Of a DNA stretch of 64,000 nucleotides, positions 35,641 through 63,453 are shown piece by piece. How positions within the stretch are numbered: the stretch's first letter is position 1; the number at the start of each line of letters is the position of its first letter. The translations under genes and the position numbers were made by a program. The DNA comes from a virus. The stretch lies in IMG/VR virus record IMGVR_UViG_3300045988_077266, positions 17,375 to 81,374 of that record; one strand, given 5' to 3'. Below the pieces are notes generated by a model. It searched no databases, was not told the DNA's origin, and worked only from the letters and a program-made list of their open reading frames with translations.

Positions 35641-35716
35641 GGGAGGTTCATATAGTGGTCAAGTATGCACGACTTATAATCGTGTCACAGGTGTTCGAAT
35701 CACCTACCTCCTACCA
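35641..35716 (+). tRNA. tRNA-Ile, anticodon UAU, with encoded CCA
   Basis: Hand-folded cloverleaf. The acceptor is GGGAGGT/ACCTCCT (G1.U72). The D stem is ATAT/GTAT. The anticodon stem is CACGA/TCGTG with loop CT-TAT-AA. The T arm is AGGTG-TTCGAAT-CACCT. The discriminator is A, followed by CCA. Confidence 0.8.
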
Positions 35717-37904: not shown

Positions 37905-38233
37905 TGGATAAGAGAACTCGTGAACGGCTTGAACGTGAGAAGCTAAAGCAGATGATTGACAATAATCCCAAGCTCAAGGCTTTTCTTGATGCGGCCACAG
38001 AAGAAACAGGCAATAAAGACCTGAAGGAACTAATTCAGCCGGTACTTGCAGACACTTTTGATAAGATTCGCCTACAAGGTATCCAAACAGGCTGGTATGC
38101 TCATGCTTTGAGGTGCGTGGATAAGATTAAGGATTGTAAGACGATTGAAGAAGCCATTGAAATCTTAAAAGAGGATGTAAAGATGGCTCAGGAAAAGTTG
38201 GGGATTAAGGAGGTTGAGGATGAAGATATATGA
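37901..38233 (+). CDS. hypothetical protein
   Basis: 110 aa, overlapping the upstream stop as ATGA. Confidence 0.5.
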   Translation: MMDKRTRERLEREKLKQMIDNNPKLKAFLDAATEETGNKDLKELIQPVLADTFDKIRLQGIQTGWYAHALRCVDKIKDCKTIEEAIEILKEDVKMAQEKLGIKEVEDEDI

Positions 38234-38976
38234 GAAAAAGAGAAAATGTTGTTGGAAACAGGTATGGAAGATTAACTGTTATTGAAGATGCTGAGCCTTA
38301 CATATGGCGAGGAAAGAAAAATCGCATGGAAAAGTGTTTGTGCGATTGTGGTAATATTGTCTTTTGTCAGTTGTCTGCATTAAAATGCGGCCTTACAAAA
38401 TCTTGTGGCTGTTACGGACGAGAATTAACGTCAAAAGTAACTGCAAAAACAAACAACTATGATTTTTATGATGATTATGTTATTGGTCATTGTAGTAATT
38501 GTGACGATGTGTTCTATGTAGACGCAGAAGATTATGAAAAGATAAAGAATTATTGTTGGTTAAAACATAAAAACAATGGCTATATCATCTCCAACACATA
38601 TAAAATAAATGGTAAAAAGAAAGAAATAAAACTTCATCGCCTTATAATGGACGCAAAAGAAGGAGATATTGTAGACCATATTAACGGACAGAAAACAGAT
38701 AATAGAAAGAGTAATTTAAGATTTTGTAATGTTTATCAAAATGGCATGAACAGCACTAATAAAACAAAAAACATAAGTGGGAAAAAGGGAGTTTATTATA
38801 TTAAACGAGACGATAGTTGGTTGGCCGATATTAGTGTTAATGGAAAAAGAATTAGGCTTGGACAAAGAAAGAATTTGAAAGAAGCCATTAAATTAAGAAA
38901 GGATGCAGAAGAAAAATACTATGGAGAATTTAGAAGAAAAGAGCAAGAAAATGACCCCGCTATCTCAAATCCATAA
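38230..38976 (+). CDS. free-standing HNH endonuclease with AP2-type DNA-binding domain
   Basis: HRLIMDAKEGDIVDHINGQKTDNRKSNLRF (HNH) and GVYYIKRDDSWLADISVNGKRIRLGQ...EAIKLRKDAEEKYYGEF (AP2-like). Confidence 0.7.
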   Translation: MRKRENVVGNRYGRLTVIEDAEPYIWRGKKNRMEKCLCDCGNIVFCQLSALKCGLTKSCGCYGRELTSKVTAKTNNYDFYDDYVIGHCSNCDDVFYVDAEDYEKIKNYCWLKHKNNGYIISNTYKINGKKKEIKLHRLIMDAKEGDIVDHINGQKTDNRKSNLRFCNVYQNGMNSTNKTKNISGKKGVYYIKRDDSWLADISVNGKRIRLGQRKNLKEAIKLRKDAEEKYYGEFRRKEQENDPAISNP

Positions 38977-43642: not shown

Positions 43643-43838
43643 AAGAATTAAGTATTTGAAAGAAAGCCCTTGCTATCAGTGTGGTGTGGCACAACAATGC
43701 TTGGCCAAGATTACCAGATGTCCAAGGCTGCAAGAAATCAGTGATTATGTAATGCCAAGGGCAGATTATGATTACCATGATTGTATGCTATATAAGGTGT
43801 TGATGATGGAGGTAGAAAATGGGAAGCGGCACAGCTAA
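43635..43838 (+). CDS. small Cys-containing hypothetical protein
   Basis: Start trimmed to MNERIKYLKESPCYQCG... 67 aa. Confidence 0.45.
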   Translation: MNERIKYLKESPCYQCGVAQQCLAKITRCPRLQEISDYVMPRADYDYHDCMLYKVLMMEVENGKRHS

Positions 43839-45207
43839 ACCTTATGTTAAGTTCTCATCTAATGCCTCTGTTGCGGTAGCTGGGTCATCTCATCTTGTAC
43901 GATTTCAGCAGTATGGAATTCTGTTAGATTGTGGTCTTTCTCAAGGCCATGATGTAGCCACAGACTATCAGAATAACAAAGACTTCCTCAAGTCTGTGCG
44001 TGTGAAAGAAATCCAGTGGGTCATTCTCAGTCACCCCCATGCAGACCACAGTGCCCTTGTTCCAGCTTTATTCGCCAAAGGTTCTCAAGCCCATGTTTTT
44101 GTGCCATTAGGGTCTAAGCCAATTTTGAGACTGTTGTGGGAGGACAGCCTAAAAATCCATCAATCTGACTGTATCAAGCTAAATAATAAGCATGGTAAGG
44201 GGTACAGCCCATTTTATACCGCCGATGATATTGAAACAGCATTGGGTAGATGTATTGAGGTCGATTACCACCAAAAGACTAATCTAACAAAGAACATTTG
44301 GTTTGAATACTACCCTGCTGGCCATATCTTGTACTCTGCTCAAGTATATTTGTCTATGACACAAGGATATAAAGAGTATAGAGTAGGATTCAGTGGTGAT
44401 GTGGGTGGCCAAACTGAGCGGCCTTATACAATCCCTTATGAGCCTTTGCCCTTTGTAGATATGCTTATCCATGAGTGTACCTATTGTCAGCCTACCAGAC
44501 CTAATAGTGTGAAAGATAGGCCAAAGGACATTGAGAAGATTGAGACCGTGGTTAATGATAGTCATAGAATCCTGTTTCCTTGTTTTTCTCTACAGCGGAC
44601 CCAAGAGCTATTGACAGTGTTATATGAGATGTGGGAGGATAGGTTGTTACCTGACATCCCCGTTTATCTTGATAGCCCTTTGGCCATTAAGATTAGCAAC
44701 ATCTGGCCTGAGACCGAACAATGGCTAAAAGTAATGAAATGGCCGAGGCTCAAGTTTATTACTGAGACAATGGATAGTAAAGCGTTGCAGATGTCTAATG
44801 AACATTGTATCATTATCGCTGCGTCAGGTTTTTTGTCCGGGGGGAGGATTTTAAGCCACCTAACAACGGCTTTACCTAATCCTAATAATACCCTTATGTT
44901 CATTGGTTACAGTGGTGAGAATAACCTTGCATATAAGATTAAGTCTGGTGAGCCATTTGTAGAGGTTAATGGTGTGGTGCTTGAAAATAAGGCTAAGATT
45001 GTTGAGTTGCGTTCTTGGTCAAGCCATGCAAGTTATGAAGAACTAATGGATTATTTCACTACATTGAGATATAACAAGGTGTGTCTCGTACATGGTGACA
45101 TGGATGGCAAAGTATCTTTCGCTAAAACTCTCAAAGAAAAATTAGTGGAACAAGGCAAATCAAGCCGTGTTGTAGCTGTAAATCAAGACTCAAAACTGTA
45201 TATTTAA
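43819..45207 (+). CDS. metallo-beta-lactamase fold beta-CASP nuclease
   Basis: HPHADHS (HxHxDH) motif, downstream D and H motifs, and a length typical of the RNase J/CPSF/SNM1-like family. Confidence 0.65.
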   Translation: MGSGTAKPYVKFSSNASVAVAGSSHLVRFQQYGILLDCGLSQGHDVATDYQNNKDFLKSVRVKEIQWVILSHPHADHSALVPALFAKGSQAHVFVPLGSKPILRLLWEDSLKIHQSDCIKLNNKHGKGYSPFYTADDIETALGRCIEVDYHQKTNLTKNIWFEYYPAGHILYSAQVYLSMTQGYKEYRVGFSGDVGGQTERPYTIPYEPLPFVDMLIHECTYCQPTRPNSVKDRPKDIEKIETVVNDSHRILFPCFSLQRTQELLTVLYEMWEDRLLPDIPVYLDSPLAIKISNIWPETEQWLKVMKWPRLKFITETMDSKALQMSNEHCIIIAASGFLSGGRILSHLTTALPNPNNTLMFIGYSGENNLAYKIKSGEPFVEVNGVVLENKAKIVELRSWSSHASYEELMDYFTTLRYNKVCLVHGDMDGKVSFAKTLKEKLVEQGKSSRVVAVNQDSKLYI

Positions 45208-45210
45208 CTC

Positions 45211-45239
45211 TTGACAAGCCGCCTCCTTTATGATATAAT
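45211..45239 (+). promoter_or_regulatory. sigma70-type promoter
   Basis: TTGACA agccgcctcctttatga TATAAT with a 17-bp spacer. Confidence 0.6.
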
Positions 45240-45270
45240 TCAAGTATCTTAAAAAAGGAGGCGGTTTATT

Positions 45271-45552
45271 ATGGCAAAATTCCATGTCGGTCAAATGGTT
45301 AAATATGTGGGACGAGAAGGATATTGGAGTCCACTTGTGGGAACTGTTGGCCAAATACTTAAAATTAACTATTGGGGGACTAACTTTCTTGTGGAGTTTC
45401 CTAAAGGTTCTATTGTCTCTCTTAATAGCTTTCCTGATAACACTTGTTTTTGGTATGAAGAAGATGAACTTGAGCCGATAAATGACCAAAACACAACAAA
45501 AAAGATTAAAGTTCGTTGTGCTAAACATGAATGGGGGTGGACTAAAGTATGA
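45271..45552 (+). CDS. hypothetical protein
   Basis: 93 aa with an AAGGAGG RBS. Confidence 0.55.
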   Translation: MAKFHVGQMVKYVGREGYWSPLVGTVGQILKINYWGTNFLVEFPKGSIVSLNSFPDNTCFWYEEDELEPINDQNTTKKIKVRCAKHEWGWTKV

Positions 45553-45800
45553 TGTTTAACATAAACAGTCTATTCGATACAACAGATTATCTTGTGGAAA
45601 TTTATGAGGGCAACGCCCTTGTCCAGCGTCAGCGAATGTCTATGCCAGAGCAGATGGCTCAAGGCCAGTTTATGCAGTTGTGTCAACAACTTAAAGAGAC
45701 AGGTCGCCCAATGAGAGTTAAGATGATTAAGTATCAAGAGATTGAAGGCCGTGCCACGCCTCTTGAGTGTTCAATAGAATATCAGACATGGAGGGATTGA
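45549..45800 (+). CDS. hypothetical protein
   Basis: 83 aa, with start and stop coupled as ATGA. Confidence 0.5.
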   Translation: MMFNINSLFDTTDYLVEIYEGNALVQRQRMSMPEQMAQGQFMQLCQQLKETGRPMRVKMIKYQEIEGRATPLECSIEYQTWRD

Positions 45801-45801
45801 T

Positions 45802-45996
45802 ATGGGAGAGATTATTGCTTTCTTAGTGTATGTGCTTTTAGGTATTTATTTGGCTAATATTGTGATTGGCAATAGCGGTCATAAGATGGATGAGTTTGAG
45901 GAGCTTGTTGCAATCATTGTATTGGCTGTATTTTGGCCGGTGGCTTTAATTGCTATAGGCTTTATCATCTTAGATAACTGGTTGAATAGGAGATAA
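45802..45996 (+). CDS. small membrane protein
   Basis: 64 aa with two hydrophobic helices and a GGAGGG RBS. Confidence 0.5.
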   Translation: MGEIIAFLVYVLLGIYLANIVIGNSGHKMDEFEELVAIIVLAVFWPVALIAIGFIILDNWLNRR

Positions 45997-45998
45997 GT

Positions 45999-46226
45999 AT
46001 GGATAATCTGATTAAGGCTATGCGTTGCTGTACACAAGATTGTGACAGGCCGTGTTTCGCTTGTGAATATAACCAACCTGAGTATGCACCTTGTGAAGCA
46101 TCTACTCTTATGCCACTTGCTATTCAAAAGATTGTTGACCTACAAAAGTCTAACCGCAACTGGCGTAGAAAAGCCCAACGTTTACGGAAAGAAATTAAAG
46201 AATTGAAGGAGAAAGAAAATGTTTGA
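45999..46226 (+). CDS. small Cys-rich protein with basic coiled-coil tail
   Basis: 75 aa with CCTQDCDRPCFAC and a TAGGAG RBS. Confidence 0.5.
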   Translation: MDNLIKAMRCCTQDCDRPCFACEYNQPEYAPCEASTLMPLAIQKIVDLQKSNRNWRRKAQRLRKEIKELKEKENV

Positions 46227-46392
46227 GATTGTGTTGACTGGATTACTGTTGATTTTGGCCCTTGTTAATCTGTGGACGGCTAAGACTGCTTATAAAGACA
46301 AGCGATATAGCTCTTCTTGTGTAGGTTGTTTTGTGAGTGGAATTTGTTTTTCAGGGGTTGTGTTTGATGTGTTGCATTTGATTGGAGGGTAA
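46219..46392 (+). CDS. small membrane protein
   Basis: 57-codon ORF (MFEIVLTGLLLILALVNLW...) with an AAGGAG RBS, below the ORF-track cutoff. Confidence 0.4.
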   Translation: MFEIVLTGLLLILALVNLWTAKTAYKDKRYSSSCVGCFVSGICFSGVVFDVLHLIGG

Positions 46393-46393
46393 T

Positions 46394-47455
46394 ATGGTAT
46401 ATCTTGACTATGCCGCAACCTACCCTTATGTTAAGTACCCAAGTTCAGCTTATGGGCCTTTCCTTAATCCAAACACCAACTATGCTTACAAGGAAAAACG
46501 CCTACTAGCTGAAGCAGAGAACAGAGTAAAAAAGGCTATTGGGGCTAAAAGCGGCAAGGTTGTTTTTGGTGGCACGAGTAGTCAGTTGATTGAGAATTTG
46601 ATGAATGTCATTCTATCGTCCGAATATAGTTGTGATGTTTTTTGTTCTAAGTACGAGCATGATAGCTTTTTTAGATATAGAGATGATAGTTTTTACGACA
46701 AAGACGAACTTGAATTGCTTTTGAGTCAAGCAGATAATTATACTATCCCTATCGTGTTATGGCAAGCCGTACAAAACATCACAGGCGAAATTTTTCCAAC
46801 TAAACAAATTGGTGGACTTGTTCATAAATATAATGGCTTTTATATTTGTGACGGTACAGCACAGATTGGGCATACGCCTATTGAACCCAATATTGATGAC
46901 TGGTGTGATTTTTTAATTCTTGACGGGCACAAAGCCGGGACAGAATTAGGTATTGGTTGTTGTTGGATTAGCAACCGCTTAGACAAATGGCTTAATGGTT
47001 TTAAGTTGCATGGTACACCCAATCTTGCTGGTGCATTGGCTTTGACTCAAGCGGTTGAGGATGCTTGCGATAAAGAAAATTTAACTAAACAAGAGCATGA
47101 ATGGTTTGATTTACGACTTTACTTGGAACAATTATTTTTTGAGCAAGATATTGAGTTTGAGTATGCAGGTGAATTAATAGTTCCAAAACTTACTAATGCA
47201 ATTCACGCCATTCGCCTACCGGGATTTAATGCGGATGCTCTACAACAATATCTCGCTTCCAAACAAATCTATGTATCTATTGGCGGCTCTGCTTGTACCG
47301 AAAAGCATGATTATCGAGTGTTAAATGCCTATGGTTTGAGTAACGATGAAGCCAGTGAGGTTATTAGAGTTAGTTTTGGCGAGGATAGTAGTGTTGAGGA
47401 TATAGAAGCGTTGGTTGATGGCATTAAGAATTTTAAGGAGTTATATCTAAAATGA
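46394..47455 (+). CDS. class V aminotransferase-fold cysteine desulfurase (IscS/NifS/DndA-like)
   Basis: Start trimmed to MVYLDYAATYP... (compare IscS iYLDysATTP). It has the PLP-lysine block ILDGHKAG and the active-site Cys loop GGSACTEKHDYRVLNAYG...IRVSFG. Confidence 0.7.
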   Translation: MVYLDYAATYPYVKYPSSAYGPFLNPNTNYAYKEKRLLAEAENRVKKAIGAKSGKVVFGGTSSQLIENLMNVILSSEYSCDVFCSKYEHDSFFRYRDDSFYDKDELELLLSQADNYTIPIVLWQAVQNITGEIFPTKQIGGLVHKYNGFYICDGTAQIGHTPIEPNIDDWCDFLILDGHKAGTELGIGCCWISNRLDKWLNGFKLHGTPNLAGALALTQAVEDACDKENLTKQEHEWFDLRLYLEQLFFEQDIEFEYAGELIVPKLTNAIHAIRLPGFNADALQQYLASKQIYVSIGGSACTEKHDYRVLNAYGLSNDEASEVIRVSFGEDSSVEDIEALVDGIKNFKELYLK

Positions 47456-48423
47456 GCCATACAAAATCAGGAGGAGTGGATAGCACAGTTTTAAGTTGGC
47501 TTGTCCATCGTGTTTATCCTGATGTTATTGATGTATACTGTGATACTGGATTAGAGTACCCTGAGCTAAGAGAGTTTGTGTTAAGTCAGCCTAACGTTAA
47601 AAAATTAACCCCTGCTGAATATGACAGACATGAACACAAGTATAAGCACATTACATTCTCTGAAATCATCAAAAGGTATGGTTATCCTTTAATCGGTAAA
47701 GAGCAAGCAGCATTTATCCAAGAATACAAAACCACAAAAAGTGAGAAACTTAGAAACATTCGCCTTAACGGTAATAAATATGGCCGAGGTAAAATTTCTA
47801 AGCGTTGGTTAAAATTTATTAAGCCTACTTGTGATATTTGCGTAGGAGACAAATGTTGCGATATTATGAAGAAAAACCCGGCCAAGCGCTTTGAACATGA
47901 GTCTGGTCTACACCCATATATCGGAACCATGACTGAAGAAAGTGCACAGCGTCAATCTAATTGGTTAAAGTTTGGATGTAATTCTTTTGACAAAGACCGC
48001 CCCACAAGCAACCCTATATCTTTTTGGTCGAAGTCAGACGTATTGCATTGTTTAGCCAAATACAACATCCCCTATGTCAAAGAGATTTATGGTGATATTA
48101 TATGTGAAAACGGTGTATACACAACCACTAAGCAGAAACGTACCGGATGTATTTTCTGTGGGTTCGGTTGCCACCTTGAAAAAGAACCTAACAAATTTCA
48201 AACATTGGCCGTTCTTGAACCCAAGTTATATGATTACTGTATGCGTGGGGGGAAATACGATGAATCTGGTAAATGGGTTCCTAACAAGGGACTTGGGATG
48301 GCCAAAGTTCTCGATTTTATCAACGTAAAATGGTGGAATGATGGCGACGAAGCCAAGCGAGATGAATATAGAGCCAAATACAAAGAGAAAGAGCAAGAAT
48401 ATTCTGCAATGACTGATAAGTGA
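47452..48423 (+). CDS. PP-loop ATP pyrophosphatase of the PAPS-reductase/DndC/SspD-like family with Cys clusters
   Basis: SGGVDST P-loop only 5 residues from the start. It has CDICVGDKCCDIMKKNP and a C-terminal CIFCGFGC. It overlaps the desulfurase stop as ATGA. Confidence 0.6.
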   Translation: MSHTKSGGVDSTVLSWLVHRVYPDVIDVYCDTGLEYPELREFVLSQPNVKKLTPAEYDRHEHKYKHITFSEIIKRYGYPLIGKEQAAFIQEYKTTKSEKLRNIRLNGNKYGRGKISKRWLKFIKPTCDICVGDKCCDIMKKNPAKRFEHESGLHPYIGTMTEESAQRQSNWLKFGCNSFDKDRPTSNPISFWSKSDVLHCLAKYNIPYVKEIYGDIICENGVYTTTKQKRTGCIFCGFGCHLEKEPNKFQTLAVLEPKLYDYCMRGGKYDESGKWVPNKGLGMAKVLDFINVKWWNDGDEAKRDEYRAKYKEKEQEYSAMTDK

Positions 48424-48433
48424 GGTTAAAGTA

Positions 48434-49522
48434 ATGGGTAAGGTTGATGTTAAAAAACTCAAGAAGGCATTGACCTTATCGCATTATGATACCATCCTTC
48501 GTGAGCTTGGTATCCCTATCTTTAGTAAAAGCAATACTGAGTGGCGTTGTTATAGCGGAGATAGACATAAGAATCCATTTGATGGTAGCCCAAGCCTCAT
48601 CTTTTACCCTGATACAAAGATATTCCAAGGATATTCAGCAGGAAGAGCTTATGATGCAATTGCATTAGTCCAAACTCGCCTAAATCTGCTTGGCCAAACT
48701 TGTTCATTCATTGATGCTTGTAACTGGATTCTTGAGAAAACTGGCCTTGACCCAACTAAGATAACTAAGCCCCTCACAAACAACCATGTTTATGACTGGT
48801 CTGAGCTTGAGCGATTTATTAGGGTGAGAAAGTATGGTAATCAGCTACCTGAATACAACCGCAACATCATCAACACTTTACCCCCACTATACCCCCAAGC
48901 ATGGATAAATGAAGGTATAAGCGAAGAAACAATGGCCAAATATCAGATACGATATTATGAGCGTTGTAACCAGACTGTGATACCATGCTTTGATGACGAG
49001 GCAAGGTTAATTGGGGTTAGAGTAAGAAATTGGGATAAGGATAGAGTTGAACAGGCCAAGTATATGCCATTGATTACATTGGATGGACAATGTTATAAGT
49101 TTAATACTAATCAGGTGTTTTATGGGATTAACTATAACAAGCCTGAAATAGAGAGAACTGGTAAGGTCATTATCGTAGAATCCGAAAAAGCGGTAATGAA
49201 ATTAGATACTTATATGGGCAGACATAATATAGCTCTCGGTATGTATGGTAGTAATCTTGGTATTCAACGGCGTAATCAGTTAATCAAAATGGGCGTTAAT
49301 ACAGTTTCTTATGTTGTTGATAATGATTTTATAGGTCAAGACGATGAATTTTTTGAACAATGGCGAAAAAAGATACAACACTTTATCAAATTATGGGACG
49401 GGTTTTGCCGGATAGAAATAGTGTGGGATAATTTAGGTTTGCTTGGGCCAAAGGAAAACGCAACAGACAGAACTAAAGAAGTTTGGGAACAACTTTGGGA
49501 AAATAGAGAAATAATTGAATAA
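48434..49522 (+). CDS. dnaG: DNA primase (TOPRIM, DnaG-like)
   Basis: TOPRIM pattern VIIVESEKAVMKL ... YVVDNDFIGQDD. The N-terminal region has only a degenerate zinc-finger position. Confidence 0.6.
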   Translation: MGKVDVKKLKKALTLSHYDTILRELGIPIFSKSNTEWRCYSGDRHKNPFDGSPSLIFYPDTKIFQGYSAGRAYDAIALVQTRLNLLGQTCSFIDACNWILEKTGLDPTKITKPLTNNHVYDWSELERFIRVRKYGNQLPEYNRNIINTLPPLYPQAWINEGISEETMAKYQIRYYERCNQTVIPCFDDEARLIGVRVRNWDKDRVEQAKYMPLITLDGQCYKFNTNQVFYGINYNKPEIERTGKVIIVESEKAVMKLDTYMGRHNIALGMYGSNLGIQRRNQLIKMGVNTVSYVVDNDFIGQDDEFFEQWRKKIQHFIKLWDGFCRIEIVWDNLGLLGPKENATDRTKEVWEQLWENREIIE

Positions 49523-49528
49523 AAACGC

Positions 49529-49557
49529 TTGACAAATAAGTGAATATGTGATATAAT
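49529..49557 (+). promoter_or_regulatory. sigma70-type promoter of the HNH-like cassette
   Basis: TTGACA aataagtgaatatgtga TATAAT with a 17-bp spacer and a TG-extended -10. Confidence 0.65.
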
Positions 49558-49653
49558 TAAAGTATATGGGGAGCATAGGAGTAATTAACTTATGAGTAAT
49601 GATGCCTTTATCATCAAGCCATATACTATATAATATTATAAAGGAGTATTATA

Positions 49654-50313
49654 ATGGGTAGAGAAAAAGACTTAGTTGGACAAAGATTTGGTCGTTTAGT
49701 AGTAATAAAGAAAACTGGTCGCTATGTATCTCCGCATGGCAAGACGGCTACTACTTGGTTGTGTCAATGTGATTGTGGGAATACAAAAGAGGTTATTACC
49801 AGCGAATTGACCACTGGGCATGTAAAAAGTTGTGGCTGTTATCAAATTGAGGCACGATTTACCCACAAATTAACCAACCATAAATTGTATTGGGTTTACC
49901 AAGGTATGAAAGACCGATGTTATAGACCCAATAATAAACATTATAGTGATTATGGTGGACGTGGAATCACGGTTTGCGATGAATGGATTGAAGATTTTGT
50001 GAATTTCTATAATTGGGCTGTCAATAATGGCTATCAGGAAGGATTGACTATTGATAGAATTGATGTTGATGGCAATTATGAGCCTTCTAATTGCAGATGG
50101 GTAACTACGAAAGAACAACAATTTAATAAGCGTAATAATAAAAGATTTTTTCACGACGGTAAAAATTTGACATTACCAGAATGGAGTGCAATTCTTCATA
50201 TTAGTCTTGATACATTGGTTTCAAGAATATATACTCGTGGCTGGGACGCTGAAAGAGCACTGACAGAACCAGTGCATACACAAAGCCGGAATAAAAAAGC
50301 CAAATATGTGTAA
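49654..50313 (+). CDS. free-standing HNH-like homing endonuclease-type protein
   Basis: It shares the N-terminal G(N/Q)R(Y/F)GRL(T/V)VI...C(D/Q)CGN...CGCY module with 38230..38976. The central part is LTIDRIDVDGNYEPSNCRWVTTKEQQFN. Confidence 0.55.
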   Translation: MGREKDLVGQRFGRLVVIKKTGRYVSPHGKTATTWLCQCDCGNTKEVITSELTTGHVKSCGCYQIEARFTHKLTNHKLYWVYQGMKDRCYRPNNKHYSDYGGRGITVCDEWIEDFVNFYNWAVNNGYQEGLTIDRIDVDGNYEPSNCRWVTTKEQQFNKRNNKRFFHDGKNLTLPEWSAILHISLDTLVSRIYTRGWDAERALTEPVHTQSRNKKAKYV

Positions 50314-50697: not shown

Positions 50698-50726
50698 TTG
50701 ACAAAAGCCTTTTGGTGTGGTATTAT
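50698..50726 (+). promoter_or_regulatory. sigma70-type promoter
   Basis: TTGACA aaagccttttggtgtgg TATTAT. The annotated ORF start TTG 50698 is the -35 hexamer itself. Confidence 0.6.
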
Positions 50727-50769
50727 CATTACATCAAAAGGCTTTGCCTATTATGAGGAGGAATATTTA

Positions 50770-52410
50770 TTGAAAGTAAAACCTCTACTATCTAAAGTTA
50801 ACCCTTCTACGTTTATTGAGGATTATTTACAAGCTCATGGTATTGAGCAAACTGGTTTATATCTAAAACCAGAAGAAAGATGCTTAGACAACCCCAGATT
50901 CTATCCTAACATAGATAAAGGGGCTGAATTATTGAAGCAAGCAGTTGATGACGATTGGAAGATTGGGTTGTTAGTTGATGTTGACTGTGACGGTATGTGT
51001 TCTGCAACCATTGTTCGTCAGTTCCTTAACACCCAATACAACATTGACCCTATTATCTATATCCGCAAGGGTAAGGCTCATGGCCTAAGAAAGTCGGCTT
51101 CAGATGATGTTGTACCCAAGATTATTGAGGACGGATGTCAACTGCTGATTGTGCCAGATGCCGGAAGCAACGATGTTGATGAATGTCAAGAATTGGCACT
51201 CCATAAATGTCAAACATTGGTACTTGACCACCACAAAATTGAAGTTGATGATTTTTATTCTATTGTCATTAATCATCATCTTGGCGAAGGACTGAACACG
51301 GCCTTGTCTGGTACAGGTGTAACGGCCAAGTTTATTGAATATTACTGTAAGAAGTATAATCTACTTATCCCTTATGTAGATGACCTTGTGGCCATGTCTA
51401 TTATCTCTGATAGCTGTGACTTGACGGTTTTAGAGAACAGATATTATGTTCATAACGGCCTACACAACGTCCAAAACCCCCTAATCCAAGCCATGTTGCC
51501 TTCAGCAGTTAAACGTTATGGCCTAACGCCTACTGGTTATAGTTGGGCCATGATTCCACTAATCAATGCCGTGTGCCGCAAGGAAGAAACAGATGAAAAG
51601 CATGAGCTGTTTAATGCTTTTAGCGGTCATGGCGATATTGAGTCTGCTCTAAAGATGTGCCGTTCAGCACACCGCTTACAAACAGAGACAGTAAAACAAG
51701 CTGTAGAGGAAGTTGAGCCTACCCTCAACCTCGACCATAAGGTAATTATTGGGTTCTGTGATAGGGGGTTAGCTAATCAAATTGGCCTGATTGCTAATAA
51801 ATTCCAAGGCAAGTACAACAAGCCTACCATCCTACTACGTCAAGCAAGCTCTACAACATGGTCTGGTAGTCTAAGAAGCCCGGTAGATTTGACTGACGTG
51901 GTTAATGAGTCTGGTTTGGCTAAGGCCATGGGACATAATCAAGCTGCTGGTGTATTTGTTCGTAAGTCTAATCTTAATCGGCTGATTGCTTATCTTGATG
52001 AGGCCGATTTTCCACTTGAGCCTGAGATTGATGTGGCAGGGTATATCGCCCCCAAGCAAATCAATAACAAGCTCTGTAAGGCTTGTGAGGATAATGCTGA
52101 GTTGTGGGGTCAAGGGCTTAGAGAACCCACCTTCTATATTAACACCGAGATTGACGAGACTAACGTACAGGTCTTTGAAAAGCGTACTACAACAGTAAAA
52201 ATTACAGTAAATGGCGTTGATTTCTTGCTGTTTATGGCCACCCCCGAACAAGTAGACAAGTTGACACAAAAGGGCAAAAAAAGCCTATCTTTGATTGTAA
52301 CTTTGTCTACAAACGAATGGAATGGCGTGGTTAAGCCTCAAGGTAAAATTAAGCAGTTTGAGGTTGGTCAGGTTGAGGATAAGGATGAAAGTTGGGAGGA
52401 TGATTTTTAA
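50770..52410 (+). CDS. DHH-family RecJ-like phosphoesterase/exonuclease
   Basis: Start moved to TTG 50770, 9 nt after a GAGGAGG RBS and downstream of the promoter. The motifs are DVDCDGMCS, PDAGSND and VLDHHK. Confidence 0.6.
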   Translation: MKVKPLLSKVNPSTFIEDYLQAHGIEQTGLYLKPEERCLDNPRFYPNIDKGAELLKQAVDDDWKIGLLVDVDCDGMCSATIVRQFLNTQYNIDPIIYIRKGKAHGLRKSASDDVVPKIIEDGCQLLIVPDAGSNDVDECQELALHKCQTLVLDHHKIEVDDFYSIVINHHLGEGLNTALSGTGVTAKFIEYYCKKYNLLIPYVDDLVAMSIISDSCDLTVLENRYYVHNGLHNVQNPLIQAMLPSAVKRYGLTPTGYSWAMIPLINAVCRKEETDEKHELFNAFSGHGDIESALKMCRSAHRLQTETVKQAVEEVEPTLNLDHKVIIGFCDRGLANQIGLIANKFQGKYNKPTILLRQASSTTWSGSLRSPVDLTDVVNESGLAKAMGHNQAAGVFVRKSNLNRLIAYLDEADFPLEPEIDVAGYIAPKQINNKLCKACEDNAELWGQGLREPTFYINTEIDETNVQVFEKRTTTVKITVNGVDFLLFMATPEQVDKLTQKGKKSLSLIVTLSTNEWNGVVKPQGKIKQFEVGQVEDKDESWEDDF

Positions 52411-53097
52411 GTGAAACTAAATGAGCTTTATAAACAAGCCGACTATAAAGATAAGGCGGGTATGATGTTTAATGCTGATTGTCTTGAAATTATGGGTAAG
52501 ATGAATGAAGAGATTGTTGATTTTACTCTTACCGATATTCCTTACGATGCTGTAAATCGAGATAGTAACGGCCTGAGAAATCTTGATAAAGGCAACGCTG
52601 ATATTATTACCTTCGACCTTAATAAGTTTCTTAAACAGGTGTTAAGAGTTACTTCCAATTCTGTTTGTGTCTTTTGTGGTAAGGAACAATTTAGTCAAAT
52701 CTATAAATTTTTTGCCGATATTGGTAAAGGTACAGTACGCCCTATTATTTGGGAAAAGACAAACCCAAGCCCTATGAATGGTCAATATATTTATCTCAGC
52801 GGTGTTGAAATGGGCGTATGGTATAAGAAGCAGGGGGCTAAAACATTTAATGCTCGTTGTAAGAACACCGTGTTTCATTATCCTAATGGCCGAAGTAAGT
52901 TGCATCCTACTGAGAAGAATCATGCTTTGCTTGAAGATTTAATCAAGGATAATACGAACGAAGGCCAGATTGTATTTGACCCTTGTTGTGGTAGTAGCAG
53001 TCATTGTTTTGTGGCAAAGAATCTTGGTCGTAAGTATATTGGCATTGAAATAGACAAGGGTTACTTTGATGTGGCTGTTGAAAGGATGAAAGGATGA
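52411..53097 (+). CDS. DNA methyltransferase (N6-adenine or N4-cytosine, beta-class motif order)
   Basis: Motif IV-like TDIPYDA lies N-terminal and the AdoMet motif FDPCCGSSS lies C-terminal. GTG start with a GGGAGGA RBS. Confidence 0.65.
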   Translation: MKLNELYKQADYKDKAGMMFNADCLEIMGKMNEEIVDFTLTDIPYDAVNRDSNGLRNLDKGNADIITFDLNKFLKQVLRVTSNSVCVFCGKEQFSQIYKFFADIGKGTVRPIIWEKTNPSPMNGQYIYLSGVEMGVWYKKQGAKTFNARCKNTVFHYPNGRSKLHPTEKNHALLEDLIKDNTNEGQIVFDPCCGSSSHCFVAKNLGRKYIGIEIDKGYFDVAVERMKG

Positions 53098-54002: not shown

Positions 54003-54027
54003 CAACCATAATTAAATATGTTACAAT
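53999..54027 (+). promoter_or_regulatory. sigma70-type promoter upstream of the polymerase gene
   Basis: TTGACA accataattaaatatgt TACAAT with a 17-bp spacer. Confidence 0.6.
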
Positions 54028-54071
54028 TAAACCGTGGAGAAATCTACGGTTTAATTTTTAGGAGGGGTTGG

Positions 54072-57000
54072 ATGAGTTACTTTAACAACCATAATCACAC
54101 AGATATGAGCAATGCTCTATTGGGGTTCCCTGATGTTATCTGTAAAATCCCTGATTTGATTCAACGTGCTTATGACCTTGGTTTGAACGGTATCACCATT
54201 ACAGAACACGAGGGTATCTCAAGCCATATCAAGGCATTAGATTATTATGATAAGATGGAAAAGGATAGGCCATTTACATTAGCCTTGGGCAATGAGGTAT
54301 ATTTGCTTACTGAGGAAGAAGATTACCTCAACCGCCAAATTCCTAACACCATCCCTTATTATCACTTTATCTTAACTGCTCTTGATACTGAAGGCCACCA
54401 CCAACTACGCCTACTATCAACTCGTGCTTGGTTAAGGGCGTGGCGACAAGGCAAGATGTTTCGTAGACCCACTTATTATAGTGACCTTGAGGAAATTATC
54501 AAGCCCAATCAAGGCCATGTTATTGCCAGCACAGCTTGTTTAGGGTCAAGGATTGATAAGCTGCTACTTGACAATGAGATTAAGAAGGTTGGTTTAGAGG
54601 TAGAAAAGTTGCTTGATATTTTTGGTAAAGGCAACTTTTATATTGAATGTCAACCGGCGAGTGATAAAAATACACCACAAAGTCAAGTCAATAATTTGCT
54701 GTGGCAAACAGCTGAGTATCATAATCTCAAGATTATCCCAACCACCGACTCTCATTACCTCCGTAAAGAGGACGCTTTTATCCATAAGGTTTATTTACAG
54801 TCGCAAGAGGGTGATAGAGAGGTTGATGATTTTTATGCCACCGCCTATCTTATGGATGAGGCCGAATTAAGAGAACATCTGTTGATTGATTTTAATGATG
54901 CTCAAATTGACCAGATGTTTGAATGGAGTTGTGAATTAGGTGAAAGAATTAAGGGCTACAATATCCAGCACAATCCAATTATCCCGCAACTTCCGCTTGA
55001 CAAGATACCAGACTTTACTATTAATCATGTATTCAGTGATTATTATGATAAGTACCCAAATTTTAGTTGGTACTCTAATCGGCCTAAAATACATGAGCAA
55101 TATTTCTTCAGTCAGATTGAACAGGGCCTTCAAAACAAAATTGTAAATAAAGGCAAGCCCATTGAACAATATATCGCTCGATTGGACGAAGAATGGAAAG
55201 AGCTAAAAATTATCAGTGAACAGCTTGATACATCTATGGCCAGCTATTATTCGACCATGTCAGAGATTATTGAGCTTATTTGGCAAGCTGGTAGTTTAGC
55301 TATGCCAGCAAGAGGTAGTGCAGCAGGGTTCTTAACGTGTTATCTGCTTGAGGTTACACAAATTGACCCTGTGCCATTGGGTGATTATATGCCAAGTTGG
55401 AGACACTTGAATCATCAACGTGGCGTTGAACTGCCGGACATCGACAATGACTCAGAAGCCTCAAAGAAAAAAGCTATAGTTGACAAGATGAAGGAATATT
55501 TTGGCAAGGATAAAGTCATTAACGTAGGCACATTCTCTAAAATTTCCTCTAAAACAGCCATTGAACGAGCTTGTAAAGGTCTTGACATACCCAACGATAA
55601 GGCGGCTTATTTTAAGTCTTTAATTCCTGTCAACCGTGGTAAAGTTAGTAAACTAAAAGATGCTGTGTACGGCAATAAAGACAAGGGTATCAGCCCAGCC
55701 CCCGGCCTCAAGTTAGAACTAAGCCAATACCCGCATCTACTTGAGTCTGCATTGGCTCTTGAAGGGCTGATTACCAACCGTGGTACTCATGCAGCCGGTG
55801 TACTTGTATGCAATACCCCTTACACAGACTATATAGCCGCTATGCGTTCAGCAGATGGAACGTTAATTAGTTGTTATGACCTATGGGATGATGAGGCCGC
55901 TGGATGTATTAAGTTCGATATGCTCACGGTCGAAGCCGCAGATAAGATTCACCGTACAATGGATTATTTGCTTGAGAATGGCAAGATTAAGGATGAAGGG
56001 TCACTAAAAGAAACCTACTATAAGTGGGCACATCCTGACGTATTGGATTACAAAACACCCGATATGTGGGATATTCTACCTACCATTTATTCTGTGTTTC
56101 AGTTTGACACCCCAATCAGCACAAAAGCTCTGTCTGCTACTCATCCTCATAGTGTAATGGATTTGTCGGCTGCAAACAGCTTACTTCGCCTTATGCCAGA
56201 CAATGCAGACGAAACGCCTATTGACAGATATATCCGCTATAAGCAGTCAAAAGACGCTTGGTTGAAAGATACAACTGATTTTGGCCTAAATAAAGACGAA
56301 CAGGCTATTTTATGGAAGTACCTTGCGGACGCTTATGGCATGGCCGACAGCCAAGAGAAAGTAATGCGGCTAAGTATGGATGAGCATACCGCTGGTTACA
56401 CGCTTAAAGAGGCTAATAAACTCCGCAAATCTATCGCTAAGAAGGATGAAAAACTACAGGCTGAAGCTAAACAGTTGTTCTTTGATTGCTGTGAACGTCA
56501 AGGTACAAGAGAAGTCTTTGCTGATTATATCTGGAACGTAGTGTTTGCAGCAAGTATGGGCTATTCTTTCAGCCAATTACACTCTTATAGTTACTCTATC
56601 ATCGCACTGCAAGAGCTTAACCTTAACTATTACTATCCTCGTGTGTATTGGAACTGTGCTTGCTTGTCTGTAGAAGCGTCTGGTACAGACGAAGAAAACA
56701 CAGGCTCAACAGACTATGGCGAAATGGCTAAGGCTATTTATAAGATGAAAAAGTATGGGGTTGGGGTTCATGCCCCATCTATCAATGACTCTAACATCGA
56801 CTTTACCCCTCGTGAAAAAGACAGTGTTATCTTGTTTGGGCTTGGTGGTATAGCTGGTATTAACATTGATATTTCTCGCCAAATCCTCTCCAAGCGCCCA
56901 TACATATCCTTTACTGACTTCTACAACAAAAACGCCTACAAAGGCTCACTTATCACCAAGTCTAAGTTTATCCAACTAATCAAGGCCGGGTGTTTTGATG

Positions 57001-57968
57001 AGTTTGAGCCTGACAGACGTGTTGTAATGAGACAATATTTCATCCTATCTACGCCCAACGTCACATCCCTTTCTATGAACAATATCGGCCAAATTAAGGC
57101 CGCAAGAGTACCCATTCCCAAGTCTATCATTGGCCCATATAACTTTAGAAAGTATGTATGCAGCAGACAGTTCAAGTTCGCCCCCCACCCCAAGTTTAAG
57201 AGCAAAACCCTATACTGGCTCGATGATATGGCACAGCGTTATTTCAACGCTCGTTGCAAGAACAGTCTAACCGAAGGCGTGGATTATTGGTTTGATAGCG
57301 ATGCAGAGAATTGGGTTGTTGTTGATAAGAGCCTTGAAAAGTTGCTTGCTCCATCTATTGAAACGCTGAAAGATTATATCAACACACCTGAGTTCTTGGA
57401 TAAGTTTAACAAGGCCAGAGCCAAACAGAGCATGATTGAGAGTGTAGATGGGTTAGATGTAAATAGGTGGTCATTTCAGGCTTGTGCATTTTACAGCCAA
57501 GAGCATGAACTTGCCAATGTTGATTTAGCCAAGTACAGTATTTCTCATTTTTCTGACTTGCCTGAAGAACCTCAATTTGTTGAGCGTTCCTTTGGTAAGC
57601 GGTCTTGGAAACAGTTTGAGTTGTCTGCTATTTGCGGGACGGTGATAGGACGAACAGACAGCCACCACCTTGTTACTATCTTAACGCCTGATAATGAGGT
57701 TGTTAATGTCAAAATGAATGATGGTGCTTTTGCCCACTACAAGGCCCAATTAAGCACAATCAATCCAGATGGTACTAAAACGGTCATTGAAAAGTCTTGG
57801 TTTGAGCGTGGTAGTTTGTTGATTTGTTGTGGGTATCGTAGAGGGGTTGATGAATTTGTAACAAAAAAATATAAGGCTAGTATTTTCCCCTCTCAGCTTA
57901 TGAAAATAACCAGTATCAATGGCTCAGACATTGAAATCCAAACAGAACGATATTCTGAAGAAAATTAA
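54072..57968 (+). CDS. dnaE: DNA polymerase III alpha subunit (DnaE-type, N-terminal PHP domain)
   Basis: Start trimmed to MSYFNNHNHTDMSN... (PHP HxH), which has a TAGGAGGGG RBS. About 1300 aa with a Pol III alpha-like core (ARGSAAGF, PDIDND, HAAGV) and a C-terminal OB-like region. Confidence 0.75.
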   Translation: MSYFNNHNHTDMSNALLGFPDVICKIPDLIQRAYDLGLNGITITEHEGISSHIKALDYYDKMEKDRPFTLALGNEVYLLTEEEDYLNRQIPNTIPYYHFILTALDTEGHHQLRLLSTRAWLRAWRQGKMFRRPTYYSDLEEIIKPNQGHVIASTACLGSRIDKLLLDNEIKKVGLEVEKLLDIFGKGNFYIECQPASDKNTPQSQVNNLLWQTAEYHNLKIIPTTDSHYLRKEDAFIHKVYLQSQEGDREVDDFYATAYLMDEAELREHLLIDFNDAQIDQMFEWSCELGERIKGYNIQHNPIIPQLPLDKIPDFTINHVFSDYYDKYPNFSWYSNRPKIHEQYFFSQIEQGLQNKIVNKGKPIEQYIARLDEEWKELKIISEQLDTSMASYYSTMSEIIELIWQAGSLAMPARGSAAGFLTCYLLEVTQIDPVPLGDYMPSWRHLNHQRGVELPDIDNDSEASKKKAIVDKMKEYFGKDKVINVGTFSKISSKTAIERACKGLDIPNDKAAYFKSLIPVNRGKVSKLKDAVYGNKDKGISPAPGLKLELSQYPHLLESALALEGLITNRGTHAAGVLVCNTPYTDYIAAMRSADGTLISCYDLWDDEAAGCIKFDMLTVEAADKIHRTMDYLLENGKIKDEGSLKETYYKWAHPDVLDYKTPDMWDILPTIYSVFQFDTPISTKALSATHPHSVMDLSAANSLLRLMPDNADETPIDRYIRYKQSKDAWLKDTTDFGLNKDEQAILWKYLADAYGMADSQEKVMRLSMDEHTAGYTLKEANKLRKSIAKKDEKLQAEAKQLFFDCCERQGTREVFADYIWNVVFAASMGYSFSQLHSYSYSIIALQELNLNYYYPRVYWNCACLSVEASGTDEENTGSTDYGEMAKAIYKMKKYGVGVHAPSINDSNIDFTPREKDSVILFGLGGIAGINIDISRQILSKRPYISFTDFYNKNAYKGSLITKSKFIQLIKAGCFDEFEPDRRVVMRQYFILSTPNVTSLSMNNIGQIKAARVPIPKSIIGPYNFRKYVCSRQFKFAPHPKFKSKTLYWLDDMAQRYFNARCKNSLTEGVDYWFDSDAENWVVVDKSLEKLLAPSIETLKDYINTPEFLDKFNKARAKQSMIESVDGLDVNRWSFQACAFYSQEHELANVDLAKYSISHFSDLPEEPQFVERSFGKRSWKQFELSAICGTVIGRTDSHHLVTILTPDNEVVNVKMNDGAFAHYKAQLSTINPDGTKTVIEKSWFERGSLLICCGYRRGVDEFVTKKYKASIFPSQLMKITSINGSDIEIQTERYSEEN

Positions 57969-61530: not shown

Positions 61531-63453
61531 TTGGATATTACACTTAAACTAAGCAAAGACTTTGAACGTTGTCTTGAGGACTTAAAGAAAAAGTACGGAG
61601 AAGATTTTGAATACATCAATGGTCTACACCCAAATCAACTTGATTTCTCTGAGTTCCTTGATAAGTTTGTTGCTGAAGATACCATGGCCGATGCAACTAT
61701 TGACCCCAATGCCAATGCGCGGCACAAGGACATTCGTTCTTTTATGACTGAAAAAGGTAAGTCTGAAGATAAGTTATTTGGTCTAAATAAAATTTTTACT
61801 GAAATCAAAAAACGTTGGGGTTTAAGAACAGCCAAACAGTGGCTTGAACAGGAGTTTAGTAAAGGTTTTTATCTAAATGATAGTGCGACAGCCAGTTATT
61901 TCCCATATTGTTGGGCAAATGATTTTACTCGCCTTGCTACTGAGGGGCTGTTCTTTATCAATGACTATAACAACCAACCCCCTAAACACCTCACCACTTA
62001 TCTTGACGATGTTATTGAGTTTGTATCGTTCCTATCTAATCGTCAGTCTGGTGCAGTAGGTATGCCCAATGTTCTGATTTGGGCCTATTATTTCTGGAAG
62101 CACGATATTGAGAATGGATACTATTTGAAAGACCCTGACACTTATCTACGACAGTGTTTCCAAAAACTAATCTATCGTCTAAACCAACCCTTCCTACGCA
62201 TCGACCAAGCCAGCTTTACCAACGTAAGTATCTTTGACCGACCTTATCTTGAAAGCCTGTTTGGTGGCATGGAGTTCCCTGACGGCACTTTTGCCATTGA
62301 CCAGATTGAAGAAATGCTTGAGTGCCAAAAGGTGTTTATGGAGGTTGTAAGTGACATTCGTGAAGAACAGATGTTCACTTATCCTGTACTAACCTATTCT
62401 CTACTTTATAAAGATGGCAAGTTTGTAGATGAGGATTTTGCTCGGTGGTGCAGCAATCACAATATCAAGTGGTCTGATAGCAACTTCTTTGTAAGCGATA
62501 ATGTGGGTGTTTTGTCTAACTGTTGCCGTTTGCTTAGTGATACTAACAAGTTAGATGCCTTTATCAACTCTATTGGTGGCACAGCCCTTTCTGTTGGCTC
62601 TTGCCGTGTAAGCACTGTCAACCTTGTGCGTATTGCTTACGAAAGCAAGTTGAACAAGAAGAAGTATTTAGACATTCTGCGAGATAGAGTATTGCTAGAC
62701 TGCAAAGCACTAACCTCCATGCGCCACATCCTAAAGCGCAACATTGAAAAGGGTCTACTACCTAACTATCAAGACGGCGCTGTTGAGCTTGATAAGCAAT
62801 TCTGTACTATTGGCGGTATTGGTATGTATGAGGTCATGGATTTGTTTGGCCTTATCAATACGGATGAATTCGGTAACAAGTCTTATAGTGATGAGGCCGT
62901 TGAGTTTGCCAGTCAAATCCTCGACACCATGAATGATGTTAAAGACCATTTTGAGTGCGACTTCACCTTTAACATTGAGATGATTCCTGCTGAAAACTGT
63001 GCCGGTGTCATCTGCACCGCTGACAATCTACTATACGAGCAGAACAAATATTTCATCTACTCTAACCAGTGGATTCCTCTTATGGAAAAGTGTACTATCC
63101 AAGAAAAGTGTCGTTTAGGCCATCTATTTGATGCCAAGTGTGGCGGTGGTTGCATTGCTCACATTGATATTGAGAACCGCTTTCCTAATGAAGAAGCTGC
63201 TTGGGATATGCTGAATTATGTGGCTAAACAAGGCGTGATTTACTTTGCTTTTACCACTAAGATTAACGTTTGTGAAGATAAACACGCCTTTATTGGTACT
63301 AAAGAGTGTCCTCAATGTGGTAAGCCTATAGCTGACCAATATGCTCGTGTGGTAGGGTTTTATACCCCCGTTTCCGGTTATCAGCGCATCCGTAAAAGCG
63401 AGTTTAATCAGCGTAAATGGTATGATGTTCTAAACAAGGACGGGATTATGTAA
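61531..63453 (+). CDS. nrdD: anaerobic ribonucleoside-triphosphate reductase (class III)
   Basis: 640 aa. It has the C-terminal zinc motif CPQCG and the glycyl-radical motif RVVGFYTPV. TTG start 7 nt after GGAGGG. Confidence 0.75.
   Translation: MDITLKLSKDFERCLEDLKKKYGEDFEYINGLHPNQLDFSEFLDKFVAEDTMADATIDPNANARHKDIRSFMTEKGKSEDKLFGLNKIFTEIKKRWGLRTAKQWLEQEFSKGFYLNDSATASYFPYCWANDFTRLATEGLFFINDYNNQPPKHLTTYLDDVIEFVSFLSNRQSGAVGMPNVLIWAYYFWKHDIENGYYLKDPDTYLRQCFQKLIYRLNQPFLRIDQASFTNVSIFDRPYLESLFGGMEFPDGTFAIDQIEEMLECQKVFMEVVSDIREEQMFTYPVLTYSLLYKDGKFVDEDFARWCSNHNIKWSDSNFFVSDNVGVLSNCCRLLSDTNKLDAFINSIGGTALSVGSCRVSTVNLVRIAYESKLNKKKYLDILRDRVLLDCKALTSMRHILKRNIEKGLLPNYQDGAVELDKQFCTIGGIGMYEVMDLFGLINTDEFGNKSYSDEAVEFASQILDTMNDVKDHFECDFTFNIEMIPAENCAGVICTADNLLYEQNKYFIYSNQWIPLMEKCTIQEKCRLGHLFDAKCGGGCIAHIDIENRFPNEEAAWDMLNYVAKQGVIYFAFTTKINVCEDKHAFIGTKECPQCGKPIADQYARVVGFYTPVSGYQRIRKSEFNQRKWYDVLNKDGIM

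Follow-up and report, generated by a model that had tools for sequence, protein, structure and literature searches.

The window analysed here is a stretch of 64,000 nucleotides (nt) from virus record IMGVR_UViG_3300045988_077266 (positions 17,375 to 81,374), which derives from an uncultivated phage probably infecting gut Clostridia. It carries two overlapping genes on the plus strand: one (46394-47455) for a type I (IscS/NifS-like) cysteine desulfurase of 353 amino acids (aa) from a divergent phage clade, assigned by Pfam, NCBIfam, PADLOC and structure alignment, and another (47452-48423) for a PP-loop protein of the 3'-phosphoadenosine 5'-phosphosulfate (PAPS) reductase superfamily (PHROG 424), assigned by Pfam and PHROG and present as a deletion allele of 323 aa. 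Both open reading frames (ORFs) and their ATGA overlap had been noted in an earlier reading of the letters alone (the sequence-only reading), and they are confirmed here. Shine-Dalgarno sequences can be read on the same strand for each gene: GGAGGG (46384-46389) for the desulfurase ATG at 46394, and AAGGAG (47435-47440) for the PP-loop gene, whose ATG at 47452 overlaps the desulfurase stop codon. The two genes are predicted to be translationally coupled. Public collections hold the exact 353-aa product with the ATG start, the TTG-start form not being on record, and the exact window proteins are also present on metagenome contigs of about 81 kb.

The desulfurase matches Pfam Aminotran_5 (E-value 9.7e-22, 77.9 bits, cut-off 21.5) and aligns end to end with the NifS-like structure 4ixo and with IscS structures. 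The IscS/NifS hallmarks listed in the sequence-only reading are all present: YLDYAATYP (46400-46426), DGHKAG (46922-46939) and GGSACTEK (47282-47305). Conservation was followed in the gut-phage clade, defined by a PP-loop protein at least 50% or a desulfurase at least 59% identical to that of the window, with loci taken from IMG/VR, ENA and Logan. Lysine K180 of DGHKAG (46931-46933), the predicted ligand of pyridoxal 5'-phosphate (PLP), falls on the lysine of the GHK motif when aligned with 4ixo and 5zsp and is Lys in 23/23 clade sequences; C301 of GGSACTEK (47294-47296), the predicted persulfide-forming cysteine, aligns to the SGSAC loop of NifS/IscS and is Cys in 22/23. Further catalytic positions are also filled, namely the PLP-stacking His (YEHDS), the Asn of QNITG, the Asp and Gln of CDGTAQ (the Asp facing the pyridine nitrogen), the phosphate-binding Gly-Thr (HGTPN) and the substrate-carboxylate Arg (IRVSFG); His, Asp, Gly-Thr and Arg are each found in all 23 sequences. 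Catalytic residues are thus kept in 22-23 of the 23 full-length clade members, though these are 31-36% identical to the window protein, and the first gene is predicted to encode a catalytically complete IscS/NifS-type desulfurase.

This enzyme is placed in a divergent phage clade and not in a known equivalog family because it scores below every curated NCBIfam cut-off: NifS gives 75 bits (4e-21) against 530, IscS 41 against 643 and DndA 40 against 480. PADLOC matches it about equally to DndA (7e-25) and SspA (1.8e-24). An independent recruitment of the partner desulfurases in loci L016, L021 and L022 was considered and rejected, as all of them are about equally far from cellular NifS/IscS (E-values from 1e-7 to 1e-14). 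Since no curated cut-off is reached, DndA and SspA are matched about equally and the divergent members are similarly distant from the cellular enzymes, these desulfurases look like one fast-evolving, phage-specific branch of type I desulfurases. The only tblastn matches to the desulfurase among GenBank phages are at about 25% identity and belong to unannotated records; the gene is therefore rare in sequenced isolates. In two loci, L007 (5028-6819) and L009 (4853-6810), the desulfurase reading frame is interrupted at about residue 77 by 0.7-0.9 kb of inserted DNA. The insert of L009 encodes a homologue of the homing-endonuclease-like ORF of the window at 49654-50313, and the arrangement resembles a group I intron or the entry of a free-standing homing endonuclease into a conserved gene.

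The second protein matches Pfam PF01507 PAPS_reduct (6.1e-9, 36.6 bits, cut-off 22.5) and the PHROG 424 profile (1.1e-32), and the motifs that had been read in it are indeed there: SGGVDST (47467-47487), CDICVGDKCC (47830-47859) and RTGCIFCGFGC (48139-48171). Their conservation was assessed in an alignment of 68 family homologues (A2) and by motif counts in 200 family ORFs from viral and GTDB contigs. SGGVDST is a canonical PP-loop, the signature of ATP pyrophosphatases, and SGGxDS occurs in 196/200 ORFs. The cysteines invariant across A2 are the CC pair of KCCDxMKKxP (KCCDIMKKNP in the window; CC at 47854-47859), the CxxC of RTGCxFC (RTGCIFC; 48148-48159) and one Cys 27 residues past it (YDYCMRGG; 48238-48240), the last being found at the same spacing in most, not all, of the wider family. 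The arrangement CC...CxxC is kept in 196 of the 200 ORFs with the spacing CC-X83-118-CXXC. The two Cys clusters proposed from the sequence alone therefore hold as Fe-S-type cysteines, except that the first shrinks to its CC, the sole conserved pair in CDICVGDKCC. This pair aligns to the segment of CysH which bears CC in adenosine 5'-phosphosulfate (APS) reductases, whose [4Fe-4S] cluster is ligated by a CC-X~80-CXXC motif (PMC1175818); the CC and CxxC of the phage protein are putative [4Fe-4S] ligands.

Structural comparison was made with an AlphaFold (AF2) model of the full-length relative P0121 (predicted local distance difference test, pLDDT, 94.8), searched with Foldseek against the Protein Data Bank (PDB). 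The top matches were the [4Fe-4S] APS reductase 2goy (2.7e-7) and CysH, together with 6vpu and 7lhs, followed by FAD synthase, CysD and then the Fe-S thiolases TtuA, LarE and NcsA at 6e-4 to 1e-3. Template modelling (TM) scores normalised to the query reach just 0.34-0.40, the PP-loop proteins carrying about 130 extra residues. The motifs DTG..PE, ES..R and CC...CXXC are common to the phage family and to APS reductase (2goy, 7lhs) and CysH, the best fold matches.

Such likeness is what would be expected of an auxiliary metabolic pair, in which a true APS/PAPS reductase would boost assimilatory sulfate reduction and the desulfurase would remodel cysteine or sulfide pools. CysH and APS reductases are the best matches in sequence as well as in structure, CC...CXXC is the cluster motif of APS reductases, and the invariant Cys 27 residues after CXXC lies near the 25-residue spacing of the catalytic Cys in the Pseudomonas aeruginosa APS reductase. 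The viromics literature also labels the family as a cysH auxiliary metabolic gene, an annotation marked 'not validated'. Nevertheless, the family keeps an ATP-type PP-loop instead of the degenerate SFG loop of the reductases (SNSGGVDSTV, where Escherichia coli CysH has SSSFGIQAAV), and it lacks their ECGLH tail: ECG[LIV]H occurs in 0/200 family ORFs and 0/68 A2 sequences, whereas the catalytic Cys of ECG(L/I)H is essential in all sulfonucleotide reductases (PMC1175818). The NCBIfam models for CysH, APS and PAPS reductases give 13-26 bits for P0121 and at most 44 for the relative P0205, against cut-offs of 154-254; the extra residues and low normalised TM-scores point the same way, and instead of cys genes the family has DNA methyltransferases, HNH endonucleases and replication genes around it. 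A metabolic role is for these reasons quite improbable. The PAPS-reductase fold and the cluster motif show an ancestry common with sulfonucleotide reductases, not a common function.

The sequence-only reading had instead compared the second protein with DndC, SspD and TtuA, and it is not recognisable as any of these. None of the NCBIfam models reaches its cut-off, and the DndC model finds no match even at E<=1 in the full-length P0121, P0205 and L035 proteins, and the DndC model of PADLOC is also unmatched; BrxP (4e-7) and SspD (3.3e-4) are matched in PADLOC only over residues 27-80, the PP-loop region; no DndC or SspD structure is among the Foldseek PDB matches, and the nearest structures are APS/PAPS reductases. 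Judged by its motifs, the PP-loop protein is a distinct branch of PF01507 with the signatures of an Fe-S ATP-pyrophosphatase, not of a reductase. Some viral contigs have two full-length PAPS-reductase-like copies, either in tandem (L078, 8570-9568 and 9986-10975) or apart (L107, 9956-10993 and 18243-19244).

A desulfurase with a PP-loop (Fe-S) enzyme is the classic arrangement for tRNA thiolation, and the pair could be of the MnmA/TtcA/TtuA/NcsA type. Its substrate would then be host tRNA or the tRNA-Ile(UAU) encoded by the phage itself, where a 2-thiolation of U34, for instance, might restrict wobble. TtuA, NcsA and LarE are detectable structural neighbours, and the chemistry proposed below (ATP-dependent adenylation, then sulfur from a [4Fe-4S]-bound sulfide) is that of TtuA/TtcA/NcsA and LarE. 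The sole tRNA gene in the window is a tRNA-Ile with anticodon TAT (UAU) at 35641-35716; bacterial AUA decoding normally relies on a lysidine-modified CAU anticodon, and a UAU decoder is unusual. In locus L141 an AAA_33/KTI12-like kinase and a DUF2828 protein are encoded between the desulfurase and the PP-loop gene. Against this, the match of the protein to the PAPS/APS reductase branch (2.7e-7) is clearly closer than its match to TtuA (6e-4, TM 0.34-0.39, root-mean-square deviation 15-16 Å), its cysteine motif is different, and the hidden Markov models (HMMs) of TtcA and TtuA are matched just at E-values of 0.006-0.02, solely in relatives and over the PP-loop. Besides, the family is widespread in prophages and phages with DNA methyltransferases as its commonest neighbours, and the tRNA gene lies 11 kb from the pair with no linkage to it seen, so that a tRNA target has a small chance of being right. 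The ORFs around the pair that were scanned with Pfam, PHROG or PADLOC, which cover the small ORFs in part, gave no match to a ThiS/TtuB-like sulfur carrier.

The PP-loop of the window protein begins only five residues from its start. This had been seen correctly from the sequence, but it is not a native feature: it results from an in-frame deletion of 111 nt (37 codons) between 47466 and 47467 (junction at 47464-47469, plus strand), located by DNA alignment with L044 and L045, and the closest relatives keep the missing segment (360 aa in L044/L045, 359 aa in P0121). Other full-length family members have about 290-370 aa and also start before the PP-loop. The N-terminus of P0121, which is 95% identical, reads MSHTK[DDLRELQSKSLEEKIQISTARIIEWYETWGGQVYISN]SGGVDS where the window has MSHTK-SGGVDS, and on the P0121 AF2 model the lost segment forms helix 1 (H16-33) and strand 1 (E38-41), directly before S43GGVDS48. 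In adenine-nucleotide alpha-hydrolase folds strand 1 occupies the centre of the sheet. Because the deletion removes the helix and the strand leading into the PP-loop, the window allele is, on this model, very probably inactive. An assembly artefact is ruled out, since the exact 323-aa protein is found on 9 contigs from several sources. Given the 37-codon deletion, the cassette as a whole is probably inactive in the window, with the desulfurase alone functional. Another protein of the same 90% cluster, P0253, has a C-terminal frameshift.

The two genes are adjacent in the window and in 11 further non-redundant loci of the clade (L044, L008, L015, L016, L019, L021, L022, L025, L026, L031 and L050), and lie 0.9 kb apart in a twelfth (L020). 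The 4-nt overlap is found in the window, L044, L008, L015, L016, L019, L031 and L050; in L021 and L026 the order is the reverse, with the PP-loop gene first. Four genomic contexts are occupied, in which the pair follows RecJ, precedes the primase or stands between the beta-CASP nuclease and the primase. Conservation in relatives, which the sequence-only reading made a test of its proposal, was therefore found in part: the pair recurs as a movable cassette, and obligatory coupling does not hold, as each gene is also found alone in close relatives. Five small ORFs upstream of it (45271-46392) follow the phage backbone, not the pair, and for this reason the cassette is taken to consist of two genes. 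A third cassette gene was sought and rejected on the same grounds, every neighbour family being present in at most 16 of 112 loci; across these 112 loci there is no recurrent ATPase neighbour either. One of the small ORFs (45999-46226, just upstream of the desulfurase) encodes a 75-aa protein that has six cysteines among residues 1-32 (CC..C...C..C.........C) and a C-terminus that is basic and coiled; it has no PHROG or PADLOC match and is kept solely in the window's own lineage.

Beyond the clade, PHROG 424 relatives annotated as 'phosphoadenosine phosphosulfate reductase' are found in Clostridium, Ruminococcus, Vibrio and Enterobacter phages, and in cultured Clostridium and Ruminococcus phages the gene stands solo, beside terminase or portal genes. 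The window protein is a member of this 'viral cysH' group, in which a dedicated desulfurase is limited to one gut-phage clade. The commonest neighbour families of the PP-loop family are N6/N4, C5 and D12 DNA methyltransferases; HNH endonucleases and S-adenosylmethionine synthetase also recur. Methyltransferase density falls with distance in both data sets: in viral loci from 0.11 genes/kb in the first kb to about 0.02 at 3-5 kb, with a methyltransferase within 3.5 kb in 34/116 loci, and in GTDB genomes from 0.144 genes/kb in the first kb to 0 beyond 5 kb, with 24/80 loci having one within 3.5 kb. In the window itself an N6/N4 DNA methyltransferase (52411-53097, plus strand; Pfam N6_N4_Mtase 1.2e-26) lies 4 kb downstream of the pair.

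The explanation that we prefer, with a probability of roughly 45%, is that the pair is a phage-borne sulfur-relay cassette working like DndA/DndC or SspA/SspD. The desulfurase would take sulfur from cysteine as a persulfide on C301, a step for which the residues are in place, and would hand it to the adjacent PP-loop enzyme, whose [4Fe-4S] cluster it would probably build too. The acceptor has the motifs for its part, a PAPS-reductase fold with an ATP-pyrophosphatase PP-loop and a CC...CXXC cluster site, and it would adenylate an oxygen of a nucleic acid and exchange this oxygen for sulfur. Because the family adjoins DNA methyltransferases and sits in replication modules, phage DNA would be the likeliest substrate, the product serving as a protective or epigenetic mark; DNA as the target is proposed only tentatively. 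The phage desulfurase is optional, and in most phages of the wider family the host IscS/NifS would need to act as donor. A joint role of the two proteins in transferring sulfur or Fe-S is rather probable. The most far-reaching form of the idea is unlikely, namely that the intact cassette is a minimal two-protein system which sulfurates the phage's own DNA (phosphorothioate or thio-base) without ATPase or DNA-binding partners, and that the 'viral cysH' family as a whole consists of DNA-modifying enzymes.

Systems of this composition are known. Pairs of a desulfurase and a PAPS-reductase-family protein have been described in Dnd, Ssp and BREX type 4 systems, and DndA/DndC and SspA/SspD combine, as the window pair does, a NifS/IscS-type desulfurase with a PAPS-reductase-superfamily protein that has a canonical PP-loop and Fe-S cysteines. 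In Dnd systems the desulfurase is dispensable where the host IscS can serve (PMC12914056). The phage pair differs from them in being phage-borne, within replication or morphogenesis modules, and its SGGxDS and Fe-S cysteines (196/200 each), although shared with DndC, are not DndC-specific features. In the literature searched there is no account of a two-gene cassette that is carried by phages, has no partner genes and is limited to a single clade of gut phages, and neither sequence evidence for the family being non-reductase nor its methyltransferase link is described.

A number of observations weigh against such a relay. Known phosphorothioation systems depend on ATPase and DNA-binding partners (DndD/DndE, SspB/SspC or BrxC/Z/L), and PADLOC finds no Dnd, Ssp or Brx match among the 10 neighbouring proteins scanned; for DndD/E and SspB/C this agrees with the sequence-only reading. 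Gut isolates that have a PAPS-reductase gene without a DndD-type NTPase show no phosphorothioate dinucleotides (PMC12914056). The PP-loop protein is not recognisable as DndC, SspD or BrxP by profile models, and the literature search gave no experimental paper on its family and no sulfur-modified product for any member. Damaged alleles are frequent in the lineage (the deletion in the window, the frameshift in P0253 and a split gene in L050), and the methyltransferase proximity is correlative, as many loci are interrelated and the probes came from viral neighbours of the same gene. Finally, each gene is also found without the other. The PP-loop gene stands by itself in nine clade loci (L010-L014, L017, L018, L024 and L034), and among about 155 more distant loci just 3 show a desulfurase within about 10 kb (the viral L056 and 2/80 from GTDB). 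The desulfurase is alone in L004-L007 and L009, where the helicases are 89-99% identical to that of the window. One record, IMGVR_UViG_3300045988_080330, could be tiled over 77.4 of its 80.9 kb (96%); it keeps the desulfurase, and no PAPS-like sequence is found there in any of the six frames. A PAPS-like gene hidden elsewhere in a desulfurase-only genome was considered, and the four extra scans tiling that 96% found none.

These solitary occurrences favour two independent genes, the desulfurase feeding the Fe-S clusters or thio-cofactors of other phage or host enzymes, and the PP-loop protein having no dedicated sulfur donor, using the host IscS, or carrying out an ATP-dependent ligation or amidation without sulfur. 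Because the desulfurase gene persists without its PP-loop partner, it must serve a further client, for which Fe-S enzymes such as NrdG are plausible. The window does encode the anaerobic ribonucleotide reductase NrdD and an NrdG-like 4Fe-4S activase of the radical-SAM type (61531-63947, plus strand; Pfam NRDD 1.4e-86, Fer4_12 4e-6), and this activase is another possible Fe-S client of the desulfurase. In other gut phages of 120-216 kb (L257-L259, L267, L268, L270, L271 and L286) a phage-type desulfurase, at about 20.3-21.9 kb of each locus, is encoded downstream of NrdD at a distance of about 9 kb, and no PAPS-like gene lies within reach. The second desulfurase of L050 (17576-18613) comes immediately after a class II ribonucleotide reductase. 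It may be that desulfurases are more widespread in phages, and more often linked to ribonucleotide reductases, than has been recognised. Full independence of the two genes is nevertheless doubtful. The genes adjoin in the window and the 11 further loci, in most cases with the stop codon of one overlapping the start codon of the other, and this adjacency spans four contexts, both gene orders and a desulfurase divergence down to 31% identity; genes of unrelated function would not be expected to stay together in this way. The conserved Fe-S-type cysteines of the acceptor protein also speak for a connection, and the relay from desulfurase to PP-loop enzyme stays the preferred explanation for the intact pairs.

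PAPS-reductase-like genes in phages are already well known and are routinely called cysH; few auxiliary metabolic genes are reported as often as this 'viral cysH', which is not validated as one. The ATP-type PP-loop, the missing ECGLH, the methyltransferase neighbours and, in one clade, the desulfurase partner argue that this family is not a sulfate-assimilation gene. If the family inserts sulfur into nucleic acid, the influence of viruses on sulfur cycling would have to be estimated anew, and a new route of phage DNA modification would be revealed. The clade provides a natural allelic series for its study: intact pair, N-terminal deletion, frameshift and desulfurase alone.

Regarding the genomic setting, GenBank phages give no megablast match to 44000-50000 of the window. 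The nearest cultured relatives are Enterocloster bolteae phages, whose DnaE-type polymerase is 48% identical; they are missing from the tblastn matches for both the desulfurase and the PP-loop protein. The module around the pair contains a DnaB-type helicase, a beta-CASP nuclease, a weakly supported primase, RecJ, the N6/N4 DNA methyltransferase, DnaE, a RecD-like helicase and NrdD/NrdG. The sequence-only reading had placed the pair just upstream of the primase; the position stands, and the name 'primase' comes from weak matches, to DUF6371 (2e-4, below cut-off) and to a DnaG-like PADLOC model (5e-6). The early-gene block includes a dCMP deaminase (24448-24879) and a full-length serine hydroxymethyltransferase (26336-27568; Pfam SHMT 2.5e-128), which could hint at modified nucleotides; no thymidylate synthase or hydroxymethylase was identified among the ORFs near them, several of which match no family.

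The beta-CASP nuclease of the replication module (43819-45207, 462 aa) is of the metallo-beta-lactamase type (RNase J / Artemis). Its close homologues in L044 and L207 have a weak match to the Anti-Pycsar protein Apyc1 in precomputed annotation, and the domain set of the window protein points to a nuclease rather than a cyclic-nucleotide phosphodiesterase. RecJ (50698-52410) is whole in the window and split in L004 and L005. Likewise, DnaE (54018-57968) is whole in the window, is divided in L044 into parts of 456 and 824 aa with a 165-aa ORF between them, and is matched in the Enterocloster phages in 3 pieces separated by 'DNA endonuclease' genes. Endonuclease ORFs are located in the window at 2326-3339, 38230-38976 and 49654-50313, and the phage lineage of the window appears to be rich in homing elements.

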